IMG/VR virus record: IMGVR_UViG_3300005253_000053 | Length of the DNA stretch: 64,000 nucleotides | Source: a virus | Taxonomy: Duplodnaviria > Heunggongvirae > Uroviricota > Caudoviricetes | Reading direction: 5' to 3' (one strand) | Part shown: positions 9,760 to 37,613 of the stretch, in pieces | How positions within the stretch are numbered: the stretch's first letter is position 1 | How the letters are laid out: every line of letters begins with the position of its first letter | Position numbers and translations under genes: made by a program | Notes under the pieces: model-generated | Database searches by the model: none | Told to the model about the DNA's origin: nothing | Seen by the model: only the letters and a program-made list of their open reading frames with translations

Positions 9760-10218
9760 TCAGATGTGGCCCTGAGTGACATCCACCAACATCGTGCCTG
9801 TTCCGCTCGTGATCCGAAGGCGCAGGGCGTCCGGCGAGCGCGCGTTCGTCAAAGTCGGCCAGTCGACGATCCGGCGCGACCGGCCCAGGGGTACGACTAC
9901 GTCGCTCGCAATCGAATCCCAGGTCGTGGTCGCGTCGACCTCGGTCTGCTCGACGTTTCCGCCCGTGATGCCGATCTGACGGTCTCGGTTGTCAAAGTCG
10001 AACGCGGCCAGGATCTCGACCGTCAGGCTATCCTCCAGATCCTGGTTCTCGTACTCGAAAATCATGGCCGTGTTCAGGAAAGGCCCACGAAAATAGCGGC
10101 CGTCGGGCTCAGTCGTCGGCGGGAACACCTGGGTGCGGATCGTCTCTTCGCTGTGCAGGAAGAAACGCTGGTTGAAAATGTTGGCAGCCTGAGTCTCGAC
10201 ACCAGGAGCGTTACTCAC
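9760..10218 (-). CDS. hypothetical virion-module protein
   Basis: 152 aa, protein-like composition, overlaps the glycosyltransferase stop by 8 nt. Confidence 0.45.
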   Translation of the reverse strand: MSNAPGVETQAANIFNQRFFLHSEETIRTQVFPPTTEPDGRYFRGPFLNTAMIFEYENQDLEDSLTVEILAAFDFDNRDRQIGITGGNVEQTEVDATTTWDSIASDVVVPLGRSRRIVDWPTLTNARSPDALRLRITSGTGTMLVDVTQGHI

Positions 10219-11398
10219 AGTAGATCTCCTCTCGGCTCAGACGAATGAGCACCGAACTGCCCAGGTCGCCATCTCCGACTCTGTCCCCTGAATCATATGC
10301 CAAGGGCGTCACAACGTCGGATTCTAGCTCTGCTTGCTGTAAAAGCCAAGACGACCGTGGCTCCAAGCTGAGCACTGGAACGGCCCGGCCCTGGATCAGA
10401 TCCTCGGCTACGCCTGCCGTAGGGACGAGAGGCTCTTCCAGGGAAATGGTCCTCGCACCGCGCAGCATCATCGAAACCTGCCGCCCAACGTCCACACCCT
10501 CTTTGAACGGGATCAGTTCGACGCGCTGGTGGGAATACTCTTTGCACTCGAACAAGTCCGCGTCCGTCGCCGTAACCTGGGCAGCGATAACTATAGGCTT
10601 CGATGTAACTTGCGAACACCAGCCGCGCACGGCGGCGAGCGCGTCCGGGCTGTCGTACGGGATGACTACGGCAAGCGCCGGGTCGCCCAGACGCTGAATC
10701 GATTCACGCATCAGCCCCTTGCAAGTGTCTTCCAGCAGGGCTGTGTTGCGGCGCGAAGTCTGTAGTTCGTGCTGCCGGTACTCGTAGAGCTTCTGCGGAA
10801 TGTGAACAAACTGGCAGGTCTCGGCCAGCTTGATCACCAGATCAAAATCTTCGGCCGTGGGCAGTGTCGGATTGACACCTGCGGTTCTGTCGTAGGCCGA
10901 CTTGCGCATCATGCGAAACTGAAAAGCGCACAGACCGGACTGCTGCATACGCCGTAGCGAGAACATACGACGGCAGCGCTTCTCGAAGTGGGGATCGTGC
11001 TTGGAGGGTGCGCCGTCCGATTCGACCCTAAGGTAGTCCGAATAGACCACACCGACTTGTTTGGGGCAGCCTTCCAGAGTGTTAAGAGTCATCGAGAGCG
11101 CTTCGGGAACGATCCGGTCGTCGGCGTCGACCTGACAAAAAAACTCCGAGGCCACTTCGCGGTAGGCTTGCGCGACGCGCCCCGGAGTTCCAAGATGTCC
11201 GTTGGTCAGTAGCTGGAAGCGGCTGTCCCTCTCGGCAAAGGACCGTACGATCTCTCTCGTGCGATCCTGCGAGCCGTCGTCGTAGACCTTGCAGACGAAG
11301 TCTGAGAAGCTCTGCTGCTCAACCGAGCGTAAGCAGTCTTCCAGATATTCCTCGGCGTTGTACGCCGGGACAACGACCGTAACGCGGGAACCGCTCAC
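10211..11398 (-). CDS. family-2 (GT-A) glycosyltransferase
   Basis: VVVPAYNAEEYLEDCLRSVEQQSFSDFVCKVYDDGSQDRT plus a DxD motif (QVDADD), typical GT2 N-terminus. Embedded among structural genes. Confidence 0.8.
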   Translation of the reverse strand: MSGSRVTVVVPAYNAEEYLEDCLRSVEQQSFSDFVCKVYDDGSQDRTREIVRSFAERDSRFQLLTNGHLGTPGRVAQAYREVASEFFCQVDADDRIVPEALSMTLNTLEGCPKQVGVVYSDYLRVESDGAPSKHDPHFEKRCRRMFSLRRMQQSGLCAFQFRMMRKSAYDRTAGVNPTLPTAEDFDLVIKLAETCQFVHIPQKLYEYRQHELQTSRRNTALLEDTCKGLMRESIQRLGDPALAVVIPYDSPDALAAVRGWCSQVTSKPIVIAAQVTATDADLFECKEYSHQRVELIPFKEGVDVGRQVSMMLRGARTISLEEPLVPTAGVAEDLIQGRAVPVLSLEPRSSWLLQQAELESDVVTPLAYDSGDRVGDGDLGSSVLIRLSREEIYCE

Positions 11399-11404
11399 GC
11401 ACGG

Positions 11405-11803
11405 TTAGCCAGCGCCGTAGGTGCCGGTCTGCCGGAAGTTGTCCAGCAGGTCCAGGTCGTCGATGGCGACGCGGAGAACGGACGAGCCGCCCGTGCCCGA
11501 CCCGAAGAGACGCAGGACCGGATCGTTGACCAGTCCCGCGAACTCGATGGGCGCTTCGCCACCGGCCACGATGGTTGTGCTGGTACCGGTGACCGTCACG
11601 AAGGCCGCGCCGCCGCCCGTAACCGGGCTCTGCTGCACTTCCAGGGTGACCGGGAACAGACCCAGGTTCCGGACGAACAGACGACGCACGCGCTGGGCGA
11701 ACTGAATGACAGTTCCCAGTGCCTGATTCGTGTCCGCCGGGACCGCGATCTGTACCTCTGCGGCTTCCGGCCCATAACTCCGACGATTGACAGTGTCTGC
11801 CAC
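11405..11803 (-). CDS. hypothetical small structural-like protein
   Basis: 132 aa, Gly/Thr/Val-rich and beta-like. Confidence 0.45.
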   Translation of the reverse strand: MADTVNRRSYGPEAAEVQIAVPADTNQALGTVIQFAQRVRRLFVRNLGLFPVTLEVQQSPVTGGGAAFVTVTGTSTTIVAGGEAPIEFAGLVNDPVLRLFGSGTGGSSVLRVAIDDLDLLDNFRQTGTYGAG

Positions 11804-11815
11804 GGCTTAACCTCC

Positions 11816-12163
11816 TTAGATTGCGAACTGTGGCTCTGACGGACTATCGTTGTCCGTCCGTTGTACTGCGACCTCAATGGCCACATCCCCGAAGCCGGAC
11901 AAGGCTACGAACGGGGAGGTCGATGTTATCAAATAGCTCTGACCTGCGCCAGGGTTCAGAACGGTCGCGGTTCCCGCGATGTCCGTGAAGGTGACGCCGT
12001 CCTGAGACTCCTGCCACTTCACCGTGGCCGGACCGGTGTCGCCCGTCTCGTTCAGGTGCCGAACCGACATGGTGCGCGGGATCGACGCGGACTGAGTCAG
12101 GCGCAAGACCCGAGCTTCCGTGACGGGTAGCTGGATCTTGATGTTTAGATTCCGAACCGACAT
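11816..12163 (-). CDS. hypothetical small structural-like protein
   Basis: 115 aa, beta-rich composition. Confidence 0.45.
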   Translation of the reverse strand: MSVRNLNIKIQLPVTEARVLRLTQSASIPRTMSVRHLNETGDTGPATVKWQESQDGVTFTDIAGTATVLNPGAGQSYLITSTSPFVALSGFGDVAIEVAVQRTDNDSPSEPQFAI

Positions 12164-12181
12164 CTACGGCTTCGTCCTTGA

Positions 12182-14741
12182 TCAGGGAGCGGCTACGGGC
12201 TCCGCTTCCGGCTCCGGTGCGGGCATGGGTGCTGCACCCGACGCGCCCATATTACCCGGAGCGCCGGGCTCTACGCCACCCATGTCATCAGCCGGTTCTA
12301 CACCCATTCCGTTCTGCTGTAGAGAAGACAGTTTGCCGGGGTAGCGGCGGTTAAACTGCCTCTTATGTTTCTCTACAGCCGTGAGAAAATTTGTGAGACT
12401 GTCCTCGATCTCGGAGATGTGATCCATCATCCGCTGAGCCTGGACGATAAATGTGCCACGTCCGTACTTGCTGCCCACCAGCGACTGAACCTTTCCGACT
12501 TTGCTTAGCCGTATATCCATCAGCCGATTGCGAACTTCGCGGATATCCTCTTCGAGTTCCTCCAGGATCATGGCCGCGTCTTCTGCGTCCTTTTCCCGAA
12601 AGTTCTGCTCGACGATTCCGAGCGCCATGTTGGCGGCCTTGGGTGCGAGATCCGGATTGCGCGTCATGCCCTCGATGAGAGCTTCGACATATTCCTCCGG
12701 ATTCTCAGCCCAAGCGCGCGACAGACGCGCCTCTTTCTGGACCAAAGTTTCCTTCGGCGCACTCGCCCGCGAAGATGCGTTGGTTGCAGGGTGAGCCCCT
12801 CCATCCTGGGACTCGGTCGCCGTCGCGCCCGCCGCCGCCCCGGCCGCGCGAGCGTAGATCTCGTGCGCGAGATTCTGAAGGATTCCCGCGACTTCGAGTT
12901 TCTGCCGCACGTCCTCACCGCAGTTCGGACAGGGTACGCCGCCAGCCGTGTCCGCTCCGGCATCCATTCCCGCACCACCCGCCGGAGCGTCGAGAGGAGG
13001 TGCTTCTGCGGACGGTGGAGGAGGTGGCGGTGGAGCGTCGGGCGGAAGCGGAGGCGGTTCTCCCGCTGTGGGCTCCTCGCCCGCCATTTCCTCGCCGCCC
13101 TCCGGTGGCATCGGCTCTTCGTCGCCTTCCGGCGGTGCTTCGCCTGCCAGTTCCGGTTCCAGGTCGTCGTCTTCTTCTTCCTCGTCTTCGTCCCCGGGGA
13201 ACTGCTCCAGGATCGCGATGGCCTGCTCGGTTGAGATGCCTTCGGCCAACTGTTGCAGATCCATCGGGACGAAGCAGTGCGGGCAGATCTGGAGAGACTC
13301 GTGGTGGCTCTCGTCGTCGTCTTCGATCTCGTCCGCGTGCTTCCCGGCGGCGCTCTTCTCGACAGACTTGCCTGCCACACCAACGCCCGTGCCGACAGCC
13401 TTTCCAAGCGCGCCCGCGCCACGTGCTGCGACGCCACCAATGGAACCGGCGGCGCGACCCGCACCCTTGGCGACGTCAGCCGCTGTCCTGCCCGCTTTGG
13501 CAATGACGGCTCCAACGCCTTCCTGGGCCATGCCGTGCTGCGAGACAACCTGACCGCCGGTCTGGCCGACGATGTCGTTCATGTCCCGCGCGGAATCCGG
13601 GATCTCGCCCAGTTCCGAGTCGGTCACAAAGATGGCCGCGCCGATATCCTCGGCACCGGCCGCAACCGTCTGGTCGGCTTCGTTCTGAAGCGCCTGGAGA
13701 TTCTCCGGCGTGTTTTCGAGGGACTTGGAAACCGCCCAGTCCGTGCCCACGCTCTCGCGCGTAAGCAGGATGGCGAAGCGGCCCTGAGGCTCGGCTTCGG
13801 TCATGGACTCCTGGCTGACCGATTTCTTGTAGGCCAGCATGCGCTTCTGATAGTCCGCATTGCTTTCGCCGGGCTTGCGCTCTGGCTTCAGCGGTCCGGC
13901 CTCGACCTTGCCCTTCGCGGTGCGGCCCGGCGTGGTCTTGCCGCCCTTGTAGACACCGGCACGCCTGATGCCGCCGCCAGCCGCCGCGCGCGGGTCGCCC
14001 CCCGGAACGTAGGCTTCACCGAACGCGCTTTCCATCGAAGAGCGCTTGACCGCCATGACGCCCGGTCCGGGACCGGGAATCTTGGCAACGCCCGCCTGCG
14101 CGCCCTGTGTCTTCTCAAGACCGGCCGGGGCCGTGCCGCCCTGTGGGGCCTTGCCGCCACCCTTGCCGGGTCCGAGATTCGAGCCGCTGACCGAGCCGAC
14201 CTTGGTGCCCGTGTAGTTGCTTCCGGGCACGTTCGGCGGGTAGATGTCGGCGACCTCGATGCCGTCGCTGTGACGTCCGCTGTCGTCGCTCGTGTTCGCG
14301 CCCGGGCTCTTACCGCCGCCATGAGCACCGACCGAAGGTCCTTCCGCGCCACTCTTGGTCGAGGGGTGCTTCGGGTCCTCGTTGTTCTTGCCGTGGCTGC
14401 GGTACTCGGGCGGAAGCTCCTTGCCCTTCGTGTCCACCTTGTCACTGCCCGTCAGGTCTCCGGCCTGGGCCTGCTCGCCCGTCTTGACCTTGAACTTCTC
14501 GGAGCCGGTGCCTTCGGTACCCGTGGGAGCCGCGCTGCTGGGCTTGAAGTTGCCGTAGCCCTGCTCGGTGAGCGCTTCGCGAACCTCCGACGGAACGATG
14601 CCGATGGCTTCGCCCTCGGAGTTGCGCACGAAGAGCAACCGCATGCCGCCCCGGTTGGCAACCAATTCGCCCTCCATCTCCTGGACCGTGTAGCCCAGAT
14701 TCTGGAGAACCTCGGGAAGAGTGTCGTACTGAACCTGCATG
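12182..14741 (-). CDS. large low-complexity acidic/proline-rich protein (internal core or scaffold-like candidate)
   Basis: Start set at MQVQYDTLPEV (AAGGAGAG 5 nt upstream, 10 nt after the upstream stop). It has a Gly/Lys-rich tract and a DEDEEEEDDD..PPPPPPP acidic/polyproline tract. The C-terminus is coiled-coil. Confidence 0.5.
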
Positions 14742-14750
14742 GATCTCTCC

Positions 14751-16418
14751 TTAGACTCGTGCAGCGACTGACTTGATCGCCTTGTCGAGTATATCCGCTT
14801 CCGGTGCCGTCGGCATCGGACATGGTTGATCCGCCCTGGGCTCAAAGATCTCATCCAGGTTCGGCTCGACATCGGTCGCGCCGGGCTTGGGAATCCACAT
14901 CACCCACCAGTCTGAATCGGGATCGGTCGGCGTCGAAAGCAGCCGCGTCTCCGGGTACTCGGTCGACATCCCCGTACGGAGGTTCTCGACCTCCTCCATG
15001 GTCATCTGCGGATGCAACATCACGTAGAGCGATTCCGACTTCGTGTCGAAGACCGTATCCTGGAGCGTATCCAGACTGTTGAGCATGTTCAGCTTTTTGA
15101 CGACGCGGTCCACGATCATGTCGACCGAGTCCGCGCGAACCACACCGTACGTGACCGCTTCGGCCAGGACTTCCTGGGTGTCGCGATACCGGCACTGGTC
15201 GATCTGGTAGGCCTGCATCGCCTCGTATCCGGAGAGGCTGTCGAAGACGCAGAACTTCAGCGCCCGCTTGGTGCGGGCAAAGCCGGTCTTCTTCTTTTCC
15301 TGGATGACGATGATGCCTTCCGTCGGGAGGCCCAGGACCATGGTCTTGGCATTGCGCTTCAGCCAGGGCCGTACGGTCTCCATGCCCTCGGTGAGCTTGG
15401 CAAAGTTGATGTGCATGTCGAGCAGGCCCAGCGGACCGTTGTAGGCCCAGACTTCTCTGCCTTCCGTGTACTTGCTGCGCGGCAGCGTTCCCGAACAGAT
15501 CAGCAGCTTGTTCTCGACCAGGATGCACGGGACGCCGCCCACCTCAGTCAGGTCGACTTGGGCGTGGAACCAGGGCTGGCTCTCGTGCTGGGGCTCGCCC
15601 GGCTTCATGTTGATCCGACCGCTGTGGCTGCGGTTGTACCGGCCCAGGGCGCGGTGGAACTTGTCGCCGGTCTGAGAACGGTGCCAGTCGCGAGCGGCCT
15701 GGATACGCCGCCCCATCCCACGCCGGGAGTTGATCCGGCCCTGGATCTCGCGGTCGACATCCTTGGGAGACTCGCGCGGCGGCTTCAGGCTGAAGTACGA
15801 CATGCCCTTCACCTTGCGGTTGCTCCGCTGCGGCGAGTACGTGCCACCCACCATCATGGAGTGCGGATCGTCCGCCATATCCCCCAGGCCAGGAGCCGCC
15901 GTGGCTTCGCGCAGTGCAGTTTCCCAGGTCGGAAGATCCGGGACGCCGAGTTCGGAGATGCGCTCCCACAGTTCTATGAACTGGCCCTCTTCCTCGATCT
16001 CGACCAGGAGACTGCGGATGAGTGCGTGTACCGCATCGGGAGCGTCTGCGAGATTCTCGCCCCAATCCTGGATCAGGGTGTCCAGGGCCTCGCCGCGCAT
16101 AACGCGCGGAGCGATGATGCCTGCACGAGGTTCGGGTGCCGGGGTCAGGCGGGCCGTGATGTCGCCGACCGCGCCCTGGTCGTACTCACGTTTGTCGGGG
16201 TCGCCGAACGTAGCATCGACGTTCTTACGGCTGTTCCAGAGGATGCACCACCAGTCGGCCTTGATGTCGCCACTGACAAGGCGGCATCCAGACGATCCCG
16301 TGCGGGAACCCTGCTTCCCCGTCCAGTGCTCGCAATTCCCGCAGCGTTCGCTATTGGGATTGCGGGCTTTCTGGTACTGAACCTGGGTCTGATTAAAGAC
16401 CTCTTCGAGCCGGGGCAT
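14751..16418 (-). CDS. large head-module protein with N-terminal zinc ribbon (portal position, unverified)
   Basis: Start set at MPRLEEVF (GGAGG 7 nt upstream). Contains CGNCEHW..C..WWC. 555 aa. No recognisable catalytic motif. Portal assignment is by position and size only. Confidence 0.45.
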   Translation of the reverse strand: MPRLEEVFNQTQVQYQKARNPNSERCGNCEHWTGKQGSRTGSSGCRLVSGDIKADWWCILWNSRKNVDATFGDPDKREYDQGAVGDITARLTPAPEPRAGIIAPRVMRGEALDTLIQDWGENLADAPDAVHALIRSLLVEIEEEGQFIELWERISELGVPDLPTWETALREATAAPGLGDMADDPHSMMVGGTYSPQRSNRKVKGMSYFSLKPPRESPKDVDREIQGRINSRRGMGRRIQAARDWHRSQTGDKFHRALGRYNRSHSGRINMKPGEPQHESQPWFHAQVDLTEVGGVPCILVENKLLICSGTLPRSKYTEGREVWAYNGPLGLLDMHINFAKLTEGMETVRPWLKRNAKTMVLGLPTEGIIVIQEKKKTGFARTKRALKFCVFDSLSGYEAMQAYQIDQCRYRDTQEVLAEAVTYGVVRADSVDMIVDRVVKKLNMLNSLDTLQDTVFDTKSESLYVMLHPQMTMEEVENLRTGMSTEYPETRLLSTPTDPDSDWWVMWIPKPGATDVEPNLDEIFEPRADQPCPMPTAPEADILDKAIKSVAARV

Positions 16419-16467
16419 GCAAGAACCTCCGCTGAGGCTGGTGAGAGCGCCGCAACGCAATGACGCG

Positions 16468-16904: not shown

Positions 16905-16905
16905 G

Positions 16906-17124: not shown

Positions 17125-17134
17125 GCTGCTCTCC

Positions 17135-17827
17135 TCAGTCCAGGCTCCACCCGTGTTTGATAACGTCCATTGTGTAGGCTGCCCCATGGGTGAACAGGCA
17201 GTCCAGGACTGACATGCGTTCTTGGAATCCAGGATATATCTGGGGGTACGAATGGCAACGAAATCTTTGAAAAACTGCTTGCAAGTTGTGCTGGCGGGCG
17301 TGGTCCGGGAGAAGCCGCTGCTTGAATGCCGAACTGCTCAGGATCACCCGGCCACCCGCCGCGCGGGCGACGTTGAGCGAGAGCGTGAGGAAATCGTCCG
17401 TATCGAGGCTCAGCACCTGGGACGAGTGCGCGATCCGGGTCTTGATGCCCAACCAGTCCCGGATGAGCAGGATCAGCGTGTAGTTGAGATCGAAGACCGT
17501 GGCCGAGGTCTTCAGAGCTTCCCGGATCTCCGGCGCGTACTCTTTCCAGTACGCGGTCTCGCCGTATGTCCCGGCCAGAAGCATCCAGGCCATCTCGATC
17601 TCGTGGAACGGCCGGAGCCGCGCCTCGGCGACCCGCTGCTGGGCGACCTGATTGACCGGGATGACCAGCCACGTCCAGTCGGACTCGGTGCGGATACGGT
17701 TCCGGTTCTGGAAGTGGCGCTTGCGAAAGTAGGTTGTATCGGTGAGGACGAACAGATCCGCGTGCAACAATTGATTCCAGAATCCTAACCATGGGATGAA
17801 CTCTGGTTGGTGGACGCCGACGATCAC
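17135..17827 (-). CDS. WbqC-like family protein (O-antigen/sugar-modification associated)
   Basis: N-terminus (M/V)IVGVHQPEFIPWLGFWNQL matches the WbqC-like family start (MKVAI.QP.F.PY.GYF). GTG start with GGAAGGG upstream. Confidence 0.65.
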   Translation of the reverse strand: MIVGVHQPEFIPWLGFWNQLLHADLFVLTDTTYFRKRHFQNRNRIRTESDWTWLVIPVNQVAQQRVAEARLRPFHEIEMAWMLLAGTYGETAYWKEYAPEIREALKTSATVFDLNYTLILLIRDWLGIKTRIAHSSQVLSLDTDDFLTLSLNVARAAGGRVILSSSAFKQRLLPDHARQHNLQAVFQRFRCHSYPQIYPGFQERMSVLDCLFTHGAAYTMDVIKHGWSLD

Positions 17828-17959
17828 ACGAACCCTTCCGGCGCTCTGGCGACACCTGCGCCCACGCCTCCCGGAGTGCGGTGATGATACTAATTATTGT
17901 GTGCCAAAGAAAAACGGGGACCCCGGCCGAGGTCCCCGCTATATCCGAATGGGGTTGAG

Positions 17960-19830: not shown

Positions 19831-21885
19831 CTACTTCGGTTTTTTGACCCTCGGGATATTCAGGTTCCCCGCGTGGTACTCCTCAGCCGCGATCAACATC
19901 GGTGCCCACTGGAGGTAGCCCGCCCGCGTGCGCGGGTCCTGAAAGAACTGCTTGTAGTCGCCGGGCTTGTACGCATCGACGTTGAACAGCCGGGACTCCG
20001 GAACGGTGACCGTGGTCCTGAGCGGGCTGTCGTCATCCCATCTGTACCGCCGAAACGACCGCCGCTCACGGAACCAGCGAAAGATGGCCTTCTTCGCCCA
20101 GGGCTGCCACTTGTCAATCTTGGCGATGTAGCCGGGACCTGGATTGCCGTACGGCTTGAAACGCTCATGCCGGTAGTCGCTCCGATTCCGCCAGTCACCG
20201 TCCAGGCGGTTGTTCTCTTTCTCCGCCTCCTTTTCCTGCCAGAGGCCGTCCTGGCCGATGACCACGCTGCCCGTCTTCAGCGATTCGTTGCACTTCCGGC
20301 GGTACGCCTCGAAGTCCGGACGCTCGCCCTCGTACAGCGTGTTGGAATCGTCGTAGACAAGTTCGAGGGCCTGCCCGAAACCTTCGGCACTCCAGAGCTT
20401 GACCGGAAGGTGCGGATGTAGAACATCGGAGCGGTCGAACAGACCTTGGACGATCAGCGCGATCCGGTTGTAGTGCTTGACCCGGTCCTCGACTTCCTTG
20501 AGCGCCTCGTCGAAGTACACGGAGGTGGAGTTGAACGGCTCCCACTCGTTTTCCCTGAAGCTGCTATGGAAATGCGTCTCGAAGTACCCGTCGTACGGAG
20601 CCTTGTCGAGAATATCCCTCCGCTCTCTTATCTGAAATTTGTTGAGATTGTGGGAGCTTTTCCGCAACCGCTTCGGCATGTTCTCTTTGAGCCACTTCTT
20701 CCGCCCCACCAGATTCCGTTTATGCGCAGCCTCAGCATCTGCGTGTTCCTTGCAGAGCGCCTTGAACTCACGGACCGGGATCATCTCCTCCACCTTGTCG
20801 AAGCTCATCTTCGCCATCATCGGTTCGGTCGGGTCGAAGATCTTCCCACTGGGAAACAGCATCAGCCCGAACTCCAGGTCGCACCCCATCCAGTAGACGC
20901 GCTCCCCATTTCGGATGTACAAGTAGGTTTTCTTGTCGGCGTTTTCCAACCCCATGTGGATAAATATCTTCTTCGGATCGCCGCCCCAGTCGCGCGCTTT
21001 CTTCTCCCGCCGAACTTTGAACGACACGATGCAGCGAGGGAATGGGAAGACCCGGTTCAAGTTCTCCGGCTCGCACAGCCATTTGTCGAACTTGTCGAGG
21101 CTATCAAAATCCATCCCACCAAGCTGGTAGTTGAGCAAGCACTCCTCGTCCATGTATAGGCGGCGCTGCATCAGATACAGTTTCTCGGAGATGTCAGCAG
21201 GCTCGCCCTTCTGGATCTGTTTCACGTCTTCAGTGAGACCTGCGTAGATGCTGACGTTGAAGATCCGATCCTGAATGTCATCGACGCAGGATTTCATTGC
21301 GCCTGCCATGGCCTCAAGCGGAACGGCCTCGGCCGACAACCACATCGCTAGGTTTTCATTGGCGCTCCTAATCTCGCTAAACAGTTTCGGAAGGTCCTCA
21401 TCCTTTGCCTTGACCAGCGCATTTTCGTACTTCTTGACGTTGTCGGTCCCGGAGAGCGTAACCAGGGCAGTGCTGGAAGACTCGCTGCGCTCTTCAATAC
21501 CGATCCGGCTACTCACACCCAGCCGGGCCGTGAGGGCTTTCACTTCGGCCATCTTCTCTTCGACCAGAGCTTTGTACTTGTGGACATTCCTACCGATTAC
21601 ATCCTTGGGCTTGGGCTCGTGACGCAGTTCATCGAAGAAGTCGTCGAAGTGAACCCGGCAGTGGCTCTGACCCTGGTGACCTCTCGGAGAATGAAGCTCG
21701 ACGTAGTTGGACCCGATCTCTGTGATGCAACCGAGCCACTCGTACTCGTAATCTTCGTATTTGTCAGTCTCTTCGTTGTACCTACTCTTGGTGTGCTTCA
21801 CCCAGTACCACTGACCGACCTCGGCACCACCTTCGGTGTCGAGGCGGTCAGTGACGGGATTGCGCTTGGCGACTTGCTTGGCCAC
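19831..21885 (-). CDS. large hypothetical protein (684 aa), operon partner of the GHKL ATPase
   Basis: K/R/W-rich, no recognisable motif. Its start lies 2 nt after the stop of 21887..23356. Confidence 0.6.
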   Translation of the reverse strand: MAKQVAKRNPVTDRLDTEGGAEVGQWYWVKHTKSRYNEETDKYEDYEYEWLGCITEIGSNYVELHSPRGHQGQSHCRVHFDDFFDELRHEPKPKDVIGRNVHKYKALVEEKMAEVKALTARLGVSSRIGIEERSESSSTALVTLSGTDNVKKYENALVKAKDEDLPKLFSEIRSANENLAMWLSAEAVPLEAMAGAMKSCVDDIQDRIFNVSIYAGLTEDVKQIQKGEPADISEKLYLMQRRLYMDEECLLNYQLGGMDFDSLDKFDKWLCEPENLNRVFPFPRCIVSFKVRREKKARDWGGDPKKIFIHMGLENADKKTYLYIRNGERVYWMGCDLEFGLMLFPSGKIFDPTEPMMAKMSFDKVEEMIPVREFKALCKEHADAEAAHKRNLVGRKKWLKENMPKRLRKSSHNLNKFQIRERRDILDKAPYDGYFETHFHSSFRENEWEPFNSTSVYFDEALKEVEDRVKHYNRIALIVQGLFDRSDVLHPHLPVKLWSAEGFGQALELVYDDSNTLYEGERPDFEAYRRKCNESLKTGSVVIGQDGLWQEKEAEKENNRLDGDWRNRSDYRHERFKPYGNPGPGYIAKIDKWQPWAKKAIFRWFRERRSFRRYRWDDDSPLRTTVTVPESRLFNVDAYKPGDYKQFFQDPRTRAGYLQWAPMLIAAEEYHAGNLNIPRVKKPK

Positions 21886-21886: not shown

Positions 21887-23356
21887 CTACGCTTCCTTGA
21901 ACTCGACCGGGAAGATCTCCGGCCGCTCCAGTGCGATCATCACCAGCTTCGCGCCCAGGCGCGTGCAGGCGTTGTAGTACCCCTCCGACAGGTGGTCGCT
22001 CTCGAACTCGTGAGCCAACTCGTGGATCACCAAGTCGGTCACCTTCTCCAGGTTGTCCGGGAACGCCTGGAACCACGCCCGTCCCAGGCGTCGCAAGTTG
22101 AACCGCAGATGCTTGCTGCCGTAGCACGCACCGTAGTTCTGCGGGTCGCGTACAATGTCGACCTCCGGCTCGAACCCCAGGAGCGCTTCGCCAACACGCT
22201 TCGTGTAGGCAATGATGGCCGTCATCTCGGACGTGAGATTCTTGACCCTGATGTCATCTCCATCAGCAGAGAAGATGGCCTTGCTGGTCGGGAACAAGAC
22301 CGAGGACGGCTCCATCGTCTCGAAGCGCTTGGCGTTGCCCCACTCTCCTGAACTGAGCGAGCCGCCCGCCAGGACCGAGAAGCCTTCCGACACGCCACGG
22401 CTGTTGGCCTCGGGGTCCTGTACAGACCAACTGGCGATGTCGTCCCCGTGCCGCTTGTGGATGACCTTGTCGAACGCCTCGGCCTCGATGTTCTCGTCGG
22501 ACGTGGCTGCCCGCACCCAGGCCGCGCCCGCATCGTCGTCTTCCAGTTCCTCGTGGAAGTTATTGACGATCTCGACGCGAAGTGCCTGAAGGTAGGACGG
22601 ACTCACGCTGTCACGGTCGCGCGGCAGCGGGACCTTCTGCTGGACATCGACATGCCACTTGTCGTCGGGCAGGTCACAGACGGGGATGCCCAGTTCGTAC
22701 AGACGCGGCGTGTCGCCCTCTTCAACCTCGTAGAGGACCACGCGCGTCTTGCGCCGGGTGCGACGCATATTGCCTTCATCGTCAGCAAGCTCCGTGGGGA
22801 GCGTGGCCGAGAACTCGCCCACCCTCTCAAGTATGGAGAGAGTCTCGCCGTTGATGATCGTGTGTACGCCTTCCGGCTGGATCACCGTGAACAAGACTTC
22901 CAGGGCTTCGGCGACCTCGTCCTTGTTCATGTAAACGTCGCCCTGGAAGATCGTGCCTCGCTCCAGACCCACGGTGCGCTTAACGCGACGCTGGCCGTCG
23001 GCCTTGAATGAAACGGTGCCCGTCACGGTCTCGATGACGGCACTCTTACAAAGCGAAAGGACTTCCTTTTCGCCGATGCAGAACCGCCCGCGCTTGCGCG
23101 GATCGCCGCGCCTTGATGTCCTCCCGTACAGAGTGTAAGAAGCACTCAAGTCCTCAAACCCGCGCGGGTCGTTGTCCGTGACCCGAATGTGCGCGAGGCC
23201 ACGAGACACGTGCTCGAACTCGACAAGTACATCGGTCGCGTCCGTGTCCCACGCATTGCCCAAGAGTTCCAGCGGTAAGAACGCTGACCCCCTTCGCCGG
23301 GCAACCTGGGCCAGCCCGGCCTTGTCCACCTCAAACCACTCGTTCTTCTTCGCCAT
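21887..23356 (-). CDS. GHKL-family ATPase with C-terminal HELAHE metal-binding motif
   Basis: Bergerat-fold motifs: N-box LELLGNAWDTDA, G1 VTDNDPRGF, G2 RGRFCIGEKE. C-terminal VIHELAHEFESDH (HExxH), reminiscent of zincin or the MutL DQHAxxE endonuclease motif. Confidence 0.6.
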   Translation of the reverse strand: MAKKNEWFEVDKAGLAQVARRRGSAFLPLELLGNAWDTDATDVLVEFEHVSRGLAHIRVTDNDPRGFEDLSASYTLYGRTSRRGDPRKRGRFCIGEKEVLSLCKSAVIETVTGTVSFKADGQRRVKRTVGLERGTIFQGDVYMNKDEVAEALEVLFTVIQPEGVHTIINGETLSILERVGEFSATLPTELADDEGNMRRTRRKTRVVLYEVEEGDTPRLYELGIPVCDLPDDKWHVDVQQKVPLPRDRDSVSPSYLQALRVEIVNNFHEELEDDDAGAAWVRAATSDENIEAEAFDKVIHKRHGDDIASWSVQDPEANSRGVSEGFSVLAGGSLSSGEWGNAKRFETMEPSSVLFPTSKAIFSADGDDIRVKNLTSEMTAIIAYTKRVGEALLGFEPEVDIVRDPQNYGACYGSKHLRFNLRRLGRAWFQAFPDNLEKVTDLVIHELAHEFESDHLSEGYYNACTRLGAKLVMIALERPEIFPVEFKEA

Positions 23357-24946: not shown

Positions 24947-25164
24947 CTACTTTCCGCCGCAGGCCCGGGCTGCGTTGGCCACCGTGACCACCTCACGGAC
25001 CTTGCGAATCGCCACGGTCTGGTCGGCGCTCTCCGGCGTGTGGTCCCGGATAATCGTGGCGAACGTCTTCCCCGCGTCCCGGATCAACTTGTAGGCGACG
25101 ATGTCTTCGTCGTCCGGCGGGTGGTGGGTGAACCAGTTGTCCAGCATCTCGTCAGTGATCACTT
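24947..25164 (-). CDS. hypothetical small protein
   Basis: GTG start with AGGAG 8 nt upstream and a GTGA overlap with the upstream stop. Confidence 0.35.
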
Positions 25165-31582: not shown

Positions 31583-31707
31583 TTATTTCAGGCTGGGGCG
31601 ATCAAGTTCGACCCCAGAACTACTAACTTTCCGCAGTTTTATGTCGTAATCCACGCCGGACCTTGTATTTCCCCGCCCAGCCTCGATGACGATTCCGCCG
31701 ACCATTA

Positions 31708-32246: not shown

Positions 32247-32381
32247 GAAGCTCCTGTAGCGATTGACGCCGTCCTAAACGATCTCGGTGACGAGCATGCC
32301 TAATTCAACGGCCTGGGTACGGGCCTTGTCGAGTTGGGCACCGTGGGCCGTCACTACGATAGCGTGGTGGAGAACGTAGCT

Positions 32382-32418
32382 CATACCTGTGTTATCGGAT
32401 TGGGGCAGCTATATCTCT
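32382..32418 (-). promoter_or_regulatory. class A promoter motif
   Basis: plus: catacctgtgttatcggattggggcagctatatctc. Confidence 0.55.
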
Positions 32419-32963: not shown

Positions 32964-33116
32964 TCATGGTTTCTTCCAGACCGAGGTCTTGAAGTAGCAC
33001 TTACGCGAGCAGTAGATCCGAATACCCCACTGCTGAATGCTGATACGCAGTTGCTTGCGCGTGAAGCTCTTCTTGCAGACCGGGCAGGTTTTGGTCTCTT
33101 CAATGGTAGTTGTCAT
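32964..33116 (-). CDS. zinc-ribbon mini-protein (50 aa; not in ORF track)
   Basis: MTTTIEETKTCPVCKK...CSRKC. GGAGAA 6 nt upstream. Confidence 0.35.
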   Translation of the reverse strand: MTTTIEETKTCPVCKKSFTRKQLRISIQQWGIRIYCSRKCYFKTSVWKKP

Positions 33117-33130
33117 CAGGTTCTCCTATT

Positions 33131-33454
33131 TTACTCGCGAGCCATCACACCCAACGCTTGCCATACCAGCTTTCCGATCTCGTTCTCAATCTCGTCTTTG
33201 ATCCGCTCGAACAGGGGCTTCTGGTGCCGCCGTCCCCAGCGCCACGCCGTGCGGGCCTGCTGGTGAATACGCTTCTTCCTAATCCGCCGCCGTGCCTGCA
33301 ACTGCGTCCGCTGAACGAAGTTCTCTGGTGGCACCCACAGCAGCGGCCGATGGAAACCATGCAGGATGTAGGACAACTCCCACACCCACCGGAAGCGGCT
33401 GGGGCAGTCGACCATAGGCCACTCACGAGACTTCCATCCCCGGAGGTCATTCAT
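33131..33454 (-). CDS. hypothetical Arg/Trp-rich protein
   Basis: Start at the class A motif ATG (MNDLRGWKS). The track extension translates the motif (..QSDNIGM). Confidence 0.45.
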   Translation of the reverse strand: MNDLRGWKSREWPMVDCPSRFRWVWELSYILHGFHRPLLWVPPENFVQRTQLQARRRIRKKRIHQQARTAWRWGRRHQKPLFERIKDEIENEIGKLVWQALGVMARE

Positions 33455-33488
33455 ACCTATATTATCGGATTGCGGGGGCTGTTTCGGC
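33452..33488 (-). promoter_or_regulatory. class A promoter motif
   Basis: plus: catacctatattatcggattgcgggggctgtttcggc. Confidence 0.55.
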
Positions 33489-33510
33489 AAGAATTTCTGG
33501 ATCGGGCGAG

Positions 33511-34025
33511 TCACGTGGGCAGTTTGGACAGGTTCGGACCCCACTTCCAGTCAAAACCTTTGATCTGGGCACGTCTTATGAGACGGACCAAGGCTCCCAT
33601 CTCGCGCTTCCGGACGGACTCGTCGAACACCCGGCGCTCCGGGCTTTTGCTGGCCGGGACGGTCATCGTCTTCGGAGGCAGGCAGATCTTGCGAATATTC
33701 TTCGGCGTGCAGTACAGCAGGCCCCACCCGTGCTTCTCAACGTCCTCGGCCTCCAGGACGCCCGGCTGGCACATGTACCAGCGTTCCTGGCCGACGCCAA
33801 ATCCTGGGTTACGGTACTTCTTCCTGCGGTCGGAGTAGAAATCCCCCTTGGTCGCCTTGCACTCGACCAGGATCGACCAGCCGTTGCCGAGCCACCCGAA
33901 CGCGTCAGGCTCCTCCCCAGCGTGCATCGGAAACTCAGACGCGACGGCCTTGCAGTGTTGGATGGTGAGCCACTTGATCGCGCGGCGAACCAGTTCGTCG
34001 TGGTCGAGAACTATCGGCTCCGTCA
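33511..34025 (-). CDS. candidate PD-(D/E)xK nuclease
   Basis: Start set at MTEPIVLDH (ATGA-coupled). EEPDAFGW-x9-ILVECKATKGDF fits the PD...(D/E)xK arrangement. Confidence 0.4.
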
Positions 34026-34307
34026 TACAACACTGGCCGGATCGTCTCCGGGGCCGCCCGCGATACGCTTCTCCAGTCGGTCTGCCTGCTCCCGGAGAGC
34101 CTTCATCATGTCCTCGCGGTTGGCGTTGGAAATCCACTGCATGTTCTTGCCGTCGCCGCCGAACTCGAACATCAGTACACAGAATCCCCAGTCTGGAGGG
34201 CAGTAGCTTTCTTCGATGTGGCTGGCGAGCTTCTGAAGACCGGCGCGGACCATCTCGTGGTACAGGTTGAACGCTTTCTTTTTGTCGTCGGTCCTGGGCA
34301 GATACAC
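34023..34307 (-). CDS. hypothetical small protein
   Basis: 94 aa. Confidence 0.4.
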   Translation of the reverse strand: MYLPRTDDKKKAFNLYHEMVRAGLQKLASHIEESYCPPDWGFCVLMFEFGGDGKNMQWISNANREDMMKALREQADRLEKRIAGGPGDDPASVV

Positions 34308-34326
34308 CTCCCGTCACGGTCCGTCA

Positions 34327-34878
34327 TCAGTCCGTATCCTCACGCAGCTTGCGTATGGCGTGGACGGGGAGCTTGCCCTTGTGAACCCAGACCCGCCATT
34401 CGTCTCGATCCAGTCGGAAAGATTTCAGAGCCTGCACGAGGCCGATGTCCACAACCATCTCGTCGACAGGATCGACCGCGTACCGACTCGCAGCTTTTTG
34501 CGCGAGAGTGATAGTGATCGCATGAACATACAAGGTCCCCCACAACCTACCACGCCGGGGGCCGCGCGAACGGTTCAAGCGTACCCAGCCGCTCGCAATC
34601 ACACGGTCGATCAGGAACGGGTTGTACGATCCTGGAAGATGCTGCTCCTCTCGTGGCCGACCCCTCTTCTGCGGATCAGCCTTTGGATGAGCATCGAATT
34701 CTTCGACCTGGGCGGCGGTCAGCCCAAACCGCTCTGGCTGTTCGCGGATGATCTTGGTGTGTTCCGGCCTCGGTTCTCCAGGTGGGCACACCTCGACGCC
34801 GCTGCCCGGATGGTACCAACCGAGCGTCCCGGAAATCTCGGGCGGCGCGTCACAAAGGGTTTGGCGGATAGCGTTCAC
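34327..34878 (-). CDS. hypothetical protein
   Basis: 183 aa. Confidence 0.45.
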   Translation of the reverse strand: MNAIRQTLCDAPPEISGTLGWYHPGSGVEVCPPGEPRPEHTKIIREQPERFGLTAAQVEEFDAHPKADPQKRGRPREEQHLPGSYNPFLIDRVIASGWVRLNRSRGPRRGRLWGTLYVHAITITLAQKAASRYAVDPVDEMVVDIGLVQALKSFRLDRDEWRVWVHKGKLPVHAIRKLREDTD

Positions 34879-35099
34879 CAGTCCACCCGGGTCAGCGTCT
34901 TCTTCAGATCAGACTGCCGGTAGACGTGGTCCTCGACGACACACCCCACGCAGACGAGCTTCTTCCGGCGTAGCCACATGCCGCGATCCCAGCACCAGAT
35001 CTTTCCGTTGCACCCATACCGGCTGCACGGCACATTCTTGGGCTGGTACCCACAGATCCTAGATCGGCCTCTGCGTCTCGTGCGGAGCATACAAGTCAC
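34875..35099 (-). CDS. Cys-rich small protein
   Basis: 74 aa with 9 Cys (CGYQ..CSRYGCNG..CW..CVGC). Confidence 0.4.
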   Translation of the reverse strand: MTCMLRTRRRGRSRICGYQPKNVPCSRYGCNGKIWCWDRGMWLRRKKLVCVGCVVEDHVYRQSDLKKTLTRVDW

Positions 35100-35401
35100 T
35101 CTACCGTACCAATGAAGCCAATGCCAGAAGGTTCCCTGACGGGATCGCGGGCACCCAGGCCCCGTGACACGCCGATTACGTTGGCTACTTCGAGACTCTC
35201 TGGGGTGCCCCGCCGTATGACGAGCCCGTCAAAGAAGTTGGACCTCGATACGTAGACCCGGTCCCCATCCTTGCCTCCCGGCTGAGTGTACCAAGAGCCG
35301 TCGAACTTGAACCGGCCTCCGTTCTTCAGGGTTCTCCAGCCGCTCCAGATTTCCCCTTCGCAGTAGCTGTCGTATTTAGAGACGGCCATCAGAGTCACCA
35401 C
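35096..35401 (-). CDS. hypothetical small protein
   Basis: 101 aa. Confidence 0.45.
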   Translation of the reverse strand: MVTLMAVSKYDSYCEGEIWSGWRTLKNGGRFKFDGSWYTQPGGKDGDRVYVSRSNFFDGLVIRRGTPESLEVANVIGVSRGLGARDPVREPSGIGFIGTVE

Positions 35402-35709
35402 GCAATGTCGATAGTTACGGTCACCTTAACCAGGGCTGGGACCCAGAGATAGGTGACGCCTTCACCTGCCTTAAAAAATACAAACGCAGTCCGAGACTCA
35501 TAATGCGCATTCCGTTCGTGCGCCGCCGGATTGAACGAGATATCCACCGTGTTCAGAAGCGTGAACATCCGGTAGGTGTGCGTACCGGGCATGACAGCGT
35601 GTACACCGACGTTGTCCGGAAACTCCTTGATGTACTTCTTGATCGGGAGCCACGCCACAACGTTCTTGTCCCGGTCGTAGTAGCCGATCTCCTGGTCACT
35701 GAATTTCAT
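35395..35709 (-). CDS. hypothetical small protein
   Basis: 104 aa. Confidence 0.45.
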   Translation of the reverse strand: MKFSDQEIGYYDRDKNVVAWLPIKKYIKEFPDNVGVHAVMPGTHTYRMFTLLNTVDISFNPAAHERNAHYESRTAFVFFKAGEGVTYLWVPALVKVTVTIDIAW

Positions 35710-35714
35710 CTAGG

Positions 35715-35969
35715 TTACCCCGCGTCAAACATGACGTCGCCGTTCGGACTCATCCGTCGCGGTTTGACGGCCTCGAAGTCCCCGTCGAAATCGAGGAAAT
35801 CAAACTTCGGTCGGAAGTCGCCGTCACCATCGGAGTAGATCGCCACCTCGCGACTGCTGCCGATGTTGCCCAGGTACTGCATGTGCTGAAGCATCGACAG
35901 GAAGTCCGGAACCCAGCGCCGACGACAAGTCATCTTGATCGTCACAGTCACATCTTCAGGAGTGGGCAT
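35715..35969 (-). CDS. hypothetical small acidic protein
   Basis: Start set at MPTPEDVTV (ATGA-coupled). The upstream part of the track ORF is an out-of-frame overlap. Confidence 0.4.
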   Translation of the reverse strand: MPTPEDVTVTIKMTCRRRWVPDFLSMLQHMQYLGNIGSSREVAIYSDGDGDFRPKFDFLDFDGDFEAVKPRRMSPNGDVMFDAG

Positions 35970-36241
35970 CAGTCCCTCGCCTTCTTGATTAGTTTCAACA
36001 GCGCCTTGCACCAGCCCATCCATTTGTCGAGACGTTCCTGGGCCTTCTCGATCTGCCACGGGCGGTTCACGTCCGCTGCCTTCGCGTTGTCGAGCCAGCC
36101 CTGAGACTTCGACACCATGCCATGGACGTACCGCATCAGCCCGTCGATGTCGTTCTGCGTCTGCGGCTTCCCGCAGTCCGGACAGTAGAGCGTCGTGCGG
36201 ACCCTGCCGCAGCACCGGTTCCTTGCGCGCTTGCGCACCAT
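35969..36241 (-). CDS. zinc-ribbon small protein
   Basis: Start set at MVRKRARNRCCGR...CPDCG. AAGGAGG upstream. Confidence 0.4.
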   Translation of the reverse strand: MVRKRARNRCCGRVRTTLYCPDCGKPQTQNDIDGLMRYVHGMVSKSQGWLDNAKAADVNRPWQIEKAQERLDKWMGWCKALLKLIKKARD

Positions 36242-36325
36242 CAGACTCGACCCGCCTCCTTGCAACCCTGGCAGTACGCCTTGCGTCGCTTCCAATCGAC
36301 GGACCAACCTTTACGCTGGGCCAGC

Positions 36326-36640
36326 CTAACACTCCTCCCGGTCGCCAGGAATGTCCAGAATTTCCAGGTCCGGGTCAGGCGTGGCGCACGCTTCGTCAAA
36401 ATCCTTTGCCGCCAGACTCAGCAGCCAGTCCAGAAATGACTCCGCGATGGGGTTTCCCCGAACCGCGTCGAGAATGTCGTACATGACCTCAGTGTGTTCC
36501 GGACCCGTGCGGAACGAGACGACCTTCATGTCGATGCCGAGCTTCCGGCACAGCGCAGCGCCCATGGCAACCATACGTTTGGCTTCGTCACTAGCCACTG
36601 TGTCCTGCCTCCCGTACGTACTTGGCGACGTCGTGCTCAA
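36326..36640 (-). CDS. hypothetical small protein
   Basis: 104 aa. Confidence 0.45.
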   Translation of the reverse strand: MSTTSPSTYGRQDTVASDEAKRMVAMGAALCRKLGIDMKVVSFRTGPEHTEVMYDILDAVRGNPIAESFLDWLLSLAAKDFDEACATPDPDLEILDIPGDREEC

Positions 36641-37613
36641 CCATCATCGCCACCAGATCCTCGAACGAAACGTCCGGTCGCCACTGCAAGACCATACGGG
36701 CCTTGGTCGGATTTGCGTGCAGGACGTGAACTTCCGCCGGGCGGAAGAACTCGGGGTCGATGACGATGTACTTCTCGTAGTCCAGATTGACCACTCCGAA
36801 GGCGGCCTTCACGAAATCTCGAACTGAGTAGGTCTTGCCGGAGCCGACCACGTAGTCGTCAGGCTTCTCCTGCTGGAGCATCAGCCACATGGCCTTCACG
36901 TAGTCTCCGGCAAAGCCCCAGTCGCGCTTGGCGTCGAGATTCCCCAAGTGGAGTTTCTCCGCCTTACCTAGACTAATGGCCGCCGCGCCCCTCGTGATCT
37001 TTCGAGTCACGAACTCCACGCCCCGACGAGGGCTCTCATGGTTGAACAGGATGCCCGAACACGCGAACAGTTTGTAGGCTTGTCGGTACATGCGGGTGAA
37101 CTGGAAGCCTGCCACCTTGCTGATCGCGTAGGGTGATTGGGGATCGAGCGGTGTCTCCTCACTTTGTGGGGCGTCGGTCGAAGCGTTCCCGAACATCTCA
37201 CTCGTGCCTGCAAAGTAGAAACGACAGTCCGGTGCGAGATGCCGCAAAGCCTCCAACAGATGCAATGTGCCGACGGCGTTGATCTGGAACGTATCGAACG
37301 GAGAGTCGAACGACTCCTTGACGAAGCTCTGGGCTCCGAGATGGTAGCACTCGTCCGGCATCACGTTCCGCACCACGTCGAATACGCTGGCGTAGACCTG
37401 CAAATCTCCGCTGTGCAACACCAGATCGTTCGCAATGTGGTGGATGCGACCTGCCCGATCTGCCGGGTCTTCGACAGCCGCTCTCCTGACGAGCCCGTGA
37501 ACTTCGTAGCCCTTCTCCAGCAGAAGCTCAGACAGATACGATCCATCCTGCCCCGTGATTCCAGTAATGAATGCTCTCATGGTCGGCCCCAGCCCCTTCG
37601 GCCATCCGGTCAC
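36591..37613 (-). CDS. gmd: GDP-mannose 4,6-dehydratase
   Basis: MRAFITGITGQDGSYLSELLLEKGYEVHGLVRR..., PYAISK, NHESPRRG, DYVVGSG..SVRDFV, FRPAEV are collinear with E. coli Gmd. The start may be at MRAF (37577). Confidence 0.85.
   Translation of the reverse strand: MTGWPKGLGPTMRAFITGITGQDGSYLSELLLEKGYEVHGLVRRAAVEDPADRAGRIHHIANDLVLHSGDLQVYASVFDVVRNVMPDECYHLGAQSFVKESFDSPFDTFQINAVGTLHLLEALRHLAPDCRFYFAGTSEMFGNASTDAPQSEETPLDPQSPYAISKVAGFQFTRMYRQAYKLFACSGILFNHESPRRGVEFVTRKITRGAAAISLGKAEKLHLGNLDAKRDWGFAGDYVKAMWLMLQQEKPDDYVVGSGKTYSVRDFVKAAFGVVNLDYEKYIVIDPEFFRPAEVHVLHANPTKARMVLQWRPDVSFEDLVAMMVEHDVAKYVREAGHSG

Follow-up and report, generated by a model that had tools for sequence, protein, structure and literature searches.

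The present study deals with a 64,000-nt stretch of DNA (positions 1-64,000; termed the window below, and all coordinates refer to the whole of it) from a phage of the class Caudoviricetes, recorded as IMGVR_UViG_3300005253_000053, and with three of its genes that encode glycan-related enzymes, namely a family-2 glycosyltransferase (GT2), a WbqC-family protein and a GDP-mannose 4,6-dehydratase (Gmd). The DNA comes from a marine-sediment metagenome (LCGC14; SRR1555743/4), the G+C content of the window is ~60%, and almost all of the genes are carried on the minus strand. The three genes belong to two independent units, one being the pair of GT2 and WbqC in the head operon and the other being Gmd, which was acquired separately. 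Three relatives represented by long contigs covering the head block (L003, L004 and L005) were available for comparison, and they came from different, unrelated samples (JGI, NCBI and Logan). Partner genes were sought among the Pfam matches from ~10 kb before the window start to 8.5 kb past its end, altogether ~82 kb. The head block, listed in the direction of its genes, and Gmd comprise the following features.

17913..17940, minus strand: terminator-like hairpin with a 12-bp stem, 8 G-C pairs and a T-run (consensus scan).
17135..17827, minus strand: WbqC-family protein of 230 amino acids (aa), which opens the head block after the hairpin (PF08889).
14751..16460, minus strand: conserved ~555-569-aa protein, a portal candidate by size and position only (orthologs 36-72% identical in L003-L005).
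12182..14872, minus strand: ~850-896-aa low-complexity protein rich in G, A, P and E (from its translation; no family match).
11816..12163, minus strand: 115-aa beta-rich protein with 21% Ser+Thr, a candidate decoration or cement protein (conserved at 48-75%).
11405..11803, minus strand: 132-aa beta-rich protein, lying upstream of GT2 with a gap of 6 nt (conserved in L003-L005).
10211..11398, minus strand: GT2, a soluble, inverting GT-A enzyme of 395 aa (PF00535).
9760..10218, minus strand: 152-aa acidic protein with 17% Ser+Thr, the start of which overlaps the GT2 stop by 8 nt.
6811..9417, minus strand: 868-aa protein in which a prohead protease domain is joined to a long scaffold-like region, acidic and coiled (phrog_207, E=7e-20).
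5128..6636, minus strand: gp23-like major capsid protein, ~501 aa as called (phrog_138, E=5e-42; PF07068 on orthologs).
36591..37580, minus strand: Gmd of 329 aa, a lone gene in the accessory-gene region, gained as a cassette by lateral exchange.

The order of the genes around GT2 and WbqC was the same in all three of the relatives on long contigs, and runs from a PolX-thumb-like gene through WbqC, two small genes, the ~565-aa portal candidate, the ~850-900-aa low-complexity protein, the 115-aa protein and a ~134-aa protein to GT2, which is followed by a ~155-aa protein, a ~137-aa protein, the protease-scaffold protein and the gp23-like capsid protein. Compared with the three relatives, the amino acid identity was 52-80% for GT2, 41-77% for WbqC and 75-92% for the capsid protein. 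In the two distant relatives, GT2 was 52-56% identical, whereas most of its neighbors were 30-50% identical. GT2 is tightly packed on both sides (a 6-nt gap upstream and an 8-nt overlap downstream), and it co-occurs with WbqC in 4/4 genomes of the clade. Both enzymes are fixed parts of the head-morphogenesis block in this clade.

WbqC appears to be the first gene of the transcription unit that holds the head genes, because the hairpin at 17913..17940 separates WbqC from the DNA-metabolism genes upstream, no terminator-like site was found by the consensus scan on the minus strand between this hairpin and a point past the capsid gene, and promoter-like sites are enriched (8 found against 2.0±1.3 expected, every one of them on the minus strand). 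The hairpin has the longest stem and is the sole minus-strand site, although the region as a whole has just as many terminator-like sites as shuffling predicts. Directly before WbqC in the window lie the PolX-thumb-like gene and a CobT-like gene. In L003, a 107-kb JGI contig, positions 1-2884 encode a 1089-aa ThyX (PF02511), with the PolX-thumb-like gene and WbqC following closely; this ThyX bears a faint LAGLIDADG match, which is probably an intein, and its counterpart is absent from the same position in the window.

The GT2 gene had been proposed at 10211..11398 in an earlier note made from the sequence alone, and this assignment is confirmed by a PF00535 match on the minus strand (E=7e-23, above the gathering score), together with the presence of a GT-A fold. 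Across 28 homologs, D40, D41, D91, D93, D94, E183 and D184 are invariant, such that the DD (nucleotide-binding), DxD/DxDD (metal-binding) and ED (catalytic-base region) motifs are all kept, and GT2 looks catalytically intact as judged from its residues. We found 14 full-length orthologs sharing 47-100% identity, and the next matches, at ~31% identity, cover only the GT-A domain. In the AlphaFold2 model (pLDDT 89), the GT-A domain (residues 1-~235) is followed by a second alpha/beta domain (residues ~236/242-395), which possesses the strongly conserved motifs ECxxYSxxRVE and LEPRSSWLLQ. A search of 1.84 billion representatives with this C-terminal domain recovered two members of the clade and one weak match (E=1.5e-5). 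The weak match aligns residues ~244-287 of GT2 with nine repeated stretches of a 3,922-aa protein, and could be a repeat module or an artefact of composition. The isoelectric point (pI) of GT2 is 5.1, and that of the C-terminal domain is 4.4-5.1 in 14/14 orthologs.

None of GT2, WbqC and Gmd has a membrane segment, the maximum hydropathy over 19 residues of GT2 being 0.87. The structural neighbors of GT2 use UDP-, dTDP- and GDP-sugar donors and act on polysaccharide, teichoic-acid, lipid and protein acceptors. A weak match to a GtrB-like PHROG was confined to residues 5-109. We rejected a GtrB-type bactoprenol glucosyltransferase for GT2, as C-terminal transmembrane helices are missing and neither a GtrA nor a GtrC partner was found in the ~82-kb region.

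For the gene at 17135..17827, the WbqC identity given in the earlier note stood (PF08889, E=3e-43, 148.9 bits against a gathering score of 21.3), but no support was found for the link to perosamine that was attached to it: the literature consulted treats the family as uncharacterised, with no more than an association with O-antigen clusters. Q7, P12, G15, D30, N41, P57, Y88, Y194, Q196 and G215 are invariant, and R42-N43-R44 are nearly so. No PHROG family was found for this protein. The high-confidence predicted structure has a class-I-aminoacyl-tRNA-synthetase-like (HUP) Rossmannoid fold and is closest to BshC, at a modest Foldseek TM of 0.49; MshC and class I aminoacyl-tRNA synthetases (aaRS) were also matched. 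The canonical HIGH and KMSKS motifs were not found in the protein, in which the beta1-alpha1 loop reads HQPEFIPWLG and has no HxGH. From the BshC/aaRS-like model, we infer that WbqC may be a nucleotide-dependent amide ligase acting on a sugar. Such an activity fits the glycan-cluster contexts of the family and the BshB/BshC/BshA-like gene arrangement of Vibrio phage V-YDF132 (see below). Both of the cellular homologs examined (n=2) reside in glycan clusters, one accompanied by a DegT aminotransferase, a GT4 transferase, a methyltransferase and a radical-SAM gene, and the other by glycosyltransferases, methyltransferases and a short-chain dehydrogenase/reductase (SDR) epimerase; the DegT aminotransferase was thus seen in 1/2. 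The WbqC gene of the present phage heads a head operon and not an O-antigen or polysaccharide cluster.

WbqC genes were also found in three isolated phages, two of which have glycosyltransferases nearby and one of which has a methyltransferase. In V-YDF132 (ON075462.1, 56790-62043), the genes for a PIG-L/LmbE deacetylase, a GT-B glycosyltransferase and a pair of WbqC paralogs are neighbors, flanked by RecA/RNase H-like genes on one side and a ParB-like gene on the other. This cluster mirrors the BshB, BshC and BshA logic of bacillithiol synthesis, and as V-YDF132 is culturable, what WbqC-containing phage clusters do could be tested there. In Arthrobacter phage DanielleIgnace (MT889387.1, genes 91-100), WbqC is gp95 (annotated as hypothetical) and sits between an exonuclease and the GT-B glycosyltransferase gp97, after which a ParB-like nuclease and a methyltransferase follow; the neighborhood looks like a DNA-modification type. 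The WbqC gene of Ralstonia phage RP13 adjoins helicases.

Gmd is a bona fide and, as judged from its sequence, intact GDP-mannose 4,6-dehydratase (EC 4.2.1.47), an enzyme of the extended SDR type. The PF16363 match (E=1e-120) covers positions 15-324 of 340 with 403 bits against a cut-off of 27, and the protein aligns end to end with the solved GMDs, the best being that of P. aeruginosa (1RPN, 3e-106). In the alignment with 1RPN, 1N7G and 2Z1M, GITGQDGSY corresponds to the GxxGxxG motif for NADP(H) binding. AGTSEMFG (T-S-E) and SPYAISK (YxxxK) were likewise aligned with the solved GMDs, such that the loss of catalytic residues, named in the earlier note as what would speak against a working enzyme, was not seen, and we rejected a degraded or non-catalytic SDR. 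The score against the TIGR01472 equivalog model was 398.5 bits, 16.5 short of the cut-off of 415, while the next best SDR model scored 106 bits. The gene had been described as full-length at 36591..37613; the identity held but the start did not, as the start is most likely the ATG at 37580 rather than the GTG at 37613, giving the 329 aa called on the source contigs.

Gmd lies 19 kb from the unit of GT2 and WbqC, amid small genes without family matches. We found a single close relative of the protein (94% aa identity), and all of the other homologs were cellular with identities of no more than 65%. The DNA of this gene is 94.5% identical to the copy on a 4.6-kb phage-like contig (L006, 884-1875, corresponding to 37599-36610 of the window), the homology beginning ~19 nt before the ATG and stopping ~19 nt before the gene end. 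The flanks of L006 are unrelated to the window even at the protein level. One other gene (42048-42413; 57% aa identity) is common to the two, but it is located on the opposite side of Gmd. High nucleotide identity confined to the gene, with unrelated flanks, is the mark of one gene having recently been exchanged between divergent phages.

The absence of a 4-reductase, epimerase or aminotransferase partner from the window, as noted earlier, holds, and it extends to the ~10 kb before and the 8.5 kb after the window: of the homologs that the earlier note proposed to seek in the rest of the genome, fcl, rmd and per, none was found across the ~82 kb, nor was a manC, aminotransferase or deacetylase gene. 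A second SDR partner hidden in the window was dismissed after a negative phmmer search. At least 597 IMG/VR stretches encode a relative of Gmd, and the scan of 142 nearest-neighbor genes at viral Gmd loci revealed 38 second SDRs and 4 DegT aminotransferases, as well as GT1 and GT11 transferases. About half of the viral Gmd genes have an adjacent partner, and about half, like the present one, do not.

These results do not support the view, put forward in the earlier note, that the three genes form one GDP-6-deoxyhexose toolkit: the head block has GT2 and WbqC as constant members, Gmd is a solitary and exchanged cassette, and nothing indicates that GT2 uses a GDP-sugar. Of the two outcomes proposed for that toolkit, virion glycosylation and remodelling of the host glycan, both are possible, with the former leading for GT2 and WbqC. 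We tentatively favor a reading in which GT2 and WbqC act on a head protein and leave it with a decorated sugar, a reading that we hold to be possible but that falls short of an even chance. GT2 and WbqC would be made late, together with the head proteins, and GT2 would transfer a sugar from a nucleotide-sugar to a head protein in the cytoplasm. The candidate acceptors would be the adjacent small, Ser/Thr-rich beta proteins of 115 and 152 aa or the capsid protein, and the acceptor might be recognized by the acidic C-terminal domain specific to the clade. The part of WbqC might be to attach a carboxylate, for example an amino acid, through an amide bond to an amino or uronic sugar, whether this sugar is still on the donor or already part of the glycan, and the outcome would be a decorated capsid surface. 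That the small beta-rich neighbors of GT2 encode virion proteins, as previously supposed, is otherwise inferred, the sole support being the weak profile match of the 115-aa family to the capsid cement protein of BPP-1 (3j4u_H, E=0.09). Gmd would convert host GDP-mannose to GDP-4-keto-6-deoxymannose, and for anything beyond that the phage would depend on enzymes of the host or on a reductase activity of Gmd itself, as in the GMD of PBCV-1; the product could feed the unit of GT2 and WbqC, although nothing links the two.

A more specific form of the head-protein reading is that the clade installs a new type of capsid modification, in which GT2, docked on a head protein by its acidic domain, adds a sugar, WbqC aminoacylates or acylates this sugar as a BshC-like, ATP-dependent amide ligase, and other members of the WbqC family, along with GT-B transferases and PIG-L deacetylases, build related decorations on DNA or protein in Vibrio and Arthrobacter phages; we regard this form as improbable.

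Several observations weigh against the modification of a head protein. The C-terminus of the capsid protein has no obvious Ser/Thr-rich tail of the mycobacteriophage kind. In the distantly related Bacillus phage vB_BceM-HSE3 (MF418016.1, 36685-39804), genes for the alpha and beta subunits of ribonucleotide reductase lie between the gene annotated as 'vertex protein of head' and the protease-scaffold and capsid genes, which shows that the equivalent slot of gp23-like head modules tolerates metabolic genes; gene position is therefore weak evidence. Co-expression with the head genes would suit a DNA acceptor too, if the DNA were hypermodified late. In 3/3 isolated phages with WbqC, the gene resides in a region of replication, recombination or ParB-like genes, that is, of DNA metabolism. 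The resemblance of WbqC to BshC is structural only and modest by TM, and a profile of 29 WbqC sequences retrieved no BshC, MshC or aaRS chain at E<=10. Finally, the 569-aa portal candidate has no Pfam, PHROG, NCBIfam or PDB profile match, and no match to HSE3 gp057 was obtained by hhalign.

Hypermodification of the phage DNA is the first alternative to be weighed: GT2, WbqC or both would act on the DNA late and before packaging, placing a sugar on a modified base and an amide-linked group in addition, which would protect the genome from host nucleases, and Gmd might supply the sugar. Phage enzymes of the GT-A type that glycosylate 5-hydroxymethylcytosine are known (bioRxiv 10.1101/2023.12.21.572611), and post-replicative hypermodification is made late, up to packaging (PMC13326640). 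The WbqC genes of the isolated phages adjoin glycosyltransferases, ParB-like nucleases and a methyltransferase in replication/recombination regions, and in the window WbqC directly follows the PolX-thumb-like and CobT-like genes, with ThyX just upstream in L003. On the other hand, the ~82-kb region gave no match for a thymidylate-synthase-like hydroxymethylase, a 5mYOX/TET or a C5-methyltransferase, and the acidity of GT2 and, in all 14 orthologs, of its extra domain is unfavorable for DNA binding. Furthermore, the glycosyltransferases paired with WbqC in other phages are of the GT-B type and unrelated to GT2, and GT2 is translationally packed among the head genes, not beside WbqC. We consider a DNA acceptor unlikely.

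Equally, we doubt that the three genes have nothing to do with a common pathway, in which case Gmd would stand alone and shift or deplete the host GDP-mannose, and GT2 and WbqC would be long-resident passengers in a permissive slot of the head operon, making, for instance, a small molecule. Gmd moves alone and is found among accessory and counter-defence-like genes, its lack of an adjacent partner is shared by about half of the viral Gmd loci, the slot in HSE3 mentioned above is taken by ribonucleotide reductase genes, and the similarity to BshC recalls the synthesis of a small molecule, bacillithiol. Against this, GT2 and WbqC are both retained in 4/4 genomes, strongly conserved and intact in their active-site residues, and the cellular contexts of WbqC are glycan clusters with glycosyltransferases.

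It is likewise unlikely that the three enzymes alter the lipopolysaccharide (LPS), capsule or extracellular polysaccharide (EPS) of the infected host, blocking superinfection or the trapping of progeny on debris, an effect suggested for cyanophage LPS clusters: all three families are typical of O-antigen/EPS clusters, cyanophage P-SSM2 has Gmd and a GT2 gene ~2-3 kb apart, such genes have been read as cell-surface modifiers (PMC12801897), Gmd is very common on viral contigs and often has partner sugar enzymes, and GT2 has the weak GtrB-like PHROG match, but GT2 has no membrane segment and so is not GtrB-like, the ~82-kb region yielded neither a flippase or polymerase nor a GtrA/GtrC partner, the place of GT2 and WbqC is fixed within a late structural block and is not that of a moron, the C-terminal domain of GT2 is specific to the phage clade, and the three genes are spread over 27 kb.

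The proposed modification of a head protein by GT2 and WbqC can be compared with known systems. In mycobacteriophages, capsid and tail-tube subunits carry glycans on their C-terminal tails (Freeman et al. 2023, Cell Host Microbe, as cited in PMC12619734). Phage-encoded transferases thought or shown to glycosylate capsid-associated proteins in the bacterial cytoplasm are the common point. Unlike that system, no such tail is evident on the present capsid protein, and the present GT2 lies inside the head operon, has the clade-specific extra domain and is paired with WbqC. Chlorovirus PBCV-1 encodes GMD (A118R), GMER and glycosyltransferases for the glycans of its capsid protein Vp54, and its GMD alone can yield GDP-D-rhamnose (PMC5408694). 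PBCV-1 and the present phage both encode GMD and glycosyltransferases, and in PBCV-1 the products reach the major capsid protein; however, PBCV-1 is a giant virus of eukaryotes with GMER beside GMD, whereas the present Gmd is solitary and unlinked to a transferase.

Enzymes of the GT-A type that glycosylate phage DNA have TarP as the top PDB neighbor and co-occur with ParB-like, terminase and epimerase genes (Pyle et al. 2024; bioRxiv 10.1101/2023.12.21.572611). The present GT2 resembles them in the GT-A fold, the DxD and ED motifs, the TarP-like structural neighbors and the occasional presence of sugar-nucleotide enzymes nearby, but differs in being acidic and placed among head genes, and no 5mYOX, ThyS-like or methyltransferase neighbor was found. 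Cyanophages P-SSM2, S-SCSM1 and S-SCSM2R also carry Gmd and GT2-family genes. In contrast to the present genes, which are dispersed with GT2 in the head operon, those of the cyanophages belong to clusters that include several epimerases and transferases and lie outside the structural module.

The synthesis of bacillithiol and mycothiol follows one logic, with a glycosyltransferase (BshA/MshA), a PIG-L deacetylase (BshB/MshB) and an aaRS-like cysteine ligase (BshC/MshC). The likeness consists in the model of WbqC being closest to BshC and in the full set of GT-B, PIG-L and WbqC genes in V-YDF132. The differences are that WbqC comprises only a ~230-aa core as compared with the 540 aa of BshC, that there is no sequence similarity to BshC, that the present glycosyltransferase is of the GT-A type and 5.7 kb from WbqC, and that no PIG-L gene was found in the ~82-kb region.

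The phage is a member of a clade of uncultivated large phages. Its genome may be jumbo-sized, because an identical WbqC was found on a 224,854-bp JGI contig. The capsid protein is no more than 30% identical to that of any isolated phage, and no near-identical DNA was found among isolated phages. Profile scans of IMG/VR with GT2 and the capsid protein detected no members of the clade; in the JGI metagenomes, nothing was found with the capsid profile, and the GT2 profile recovered only one 1.5-kb fragment of an ortholog. The 'moraphage' jumbo lineage, for which core glycosyltransferases and Bacteroidota as predicted hosts are described (PMC12619734), was set aside as kin, as nothing ties it to the present phage with 60% G+C. 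Mesorhizobium phage Cp1R7A-A1 and Erythrobacter phage vB_EliS-L02 were likewise dropped as context, since they have in common with the window only the 684-aa CobT-like gene (19831-21885, minus strand), the product of which is 44% and 39% identical to those of the two phages, respectively. An ortholog of this protein bears faint CobT_C and weak VWA Pfam matches, and in vB_EliS-L02 an AAA ATPase lies upstream of the homolog, suggesting a CobS/CobT-like pair (19831-21885 and 21887-23356 in the window, both on the minus strand).

Other proteins of the head block deserve a brief description. Phrog_207, matched by the product of 6811..9417, is a head maturation protease family, and the N-terminus of this product is similar to HSE3 gp062, which is encoded directly upstream of the HSE3 capsid gene. 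Only the C-terminal ~240 aa of the ~850-896-aa protein are conserved in L003 and L005, and it is possibly a scaffold or an internal head protein. Long low-complexity stretches rich in G, A, P, E and D, with runs such as PPPPPPPS and DEEGDEEGDEEGDDE, occur in the products of both 12182-14872 and 6811-9417 (minus strand). The N-terminus of the portal candidate has a conserved Cys-rich segment (CGNCEHW...C...WC) with a sub-threshold HIPIP match, which may be a metal-binding module and would be unusual in a portal. Downstream of the head genes, two adjacent genes (46-825 and 825-1493, minus strand) encode paralogs of 259 and 222 aa, both of which match a single gene of L003 and L005 with 38-44% identity; the two arose by tandem duplication. 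The region before the window start carries more genes, one with a weak match to a T4 baseplate protein.

Small genes fill the middle of the window, among them two GNATs, a Nudix, HNH endonucleases and a protein with the Acb2/Tad1 hairpin. The last of these is a 71-aa product (24947-25162, minus strand) matching Acb2_Tad1_hairpin (PF24729) in the accessory run downstream of Gmd, and this family comprises signal sponges against CBASS and Thoeris. Genes for HNH/endonuclease VII-like proteins are found at 46651-48669 (minus), 54086-54811 (minus) and 55477-56004 (plus), one of them being a 672-aa open reading frame that matches HNH and a helix-turn-helix; these genes, scattered in the accessory region, are likely homing endonucleases.

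Gmd genes are common in phages, and virion glycosylation is known, but the conserved pair of GT2 and WbqC in a head operon appears to be new, as does the structural link of WbqC to BshC and class I aaRS. The part that concerns Gmd is ordinary, and it shows single nucleotide-sugar genes circulating between divergent phages. The link between WbqC and BshC offers the first mechanistic hypothesis for a widespread family of O-antigen clusters, and the finding points to a BshA/BshB/BshC-like triad in Vibrio phages. Most documented cases of phage virion glycosylation to date come from mycobacteriophages, in which it affects immune recognition. If GT2 and WbqC indeed decorate a head protein, the system would be compact enough to test, with a single transferase, a single ligase and a few candidate acceptors, and the presence of such a transferase in the head operon of an environmental lineage unrelated to the mycobacteriophages would imply that virion glycosylation is older and broader.

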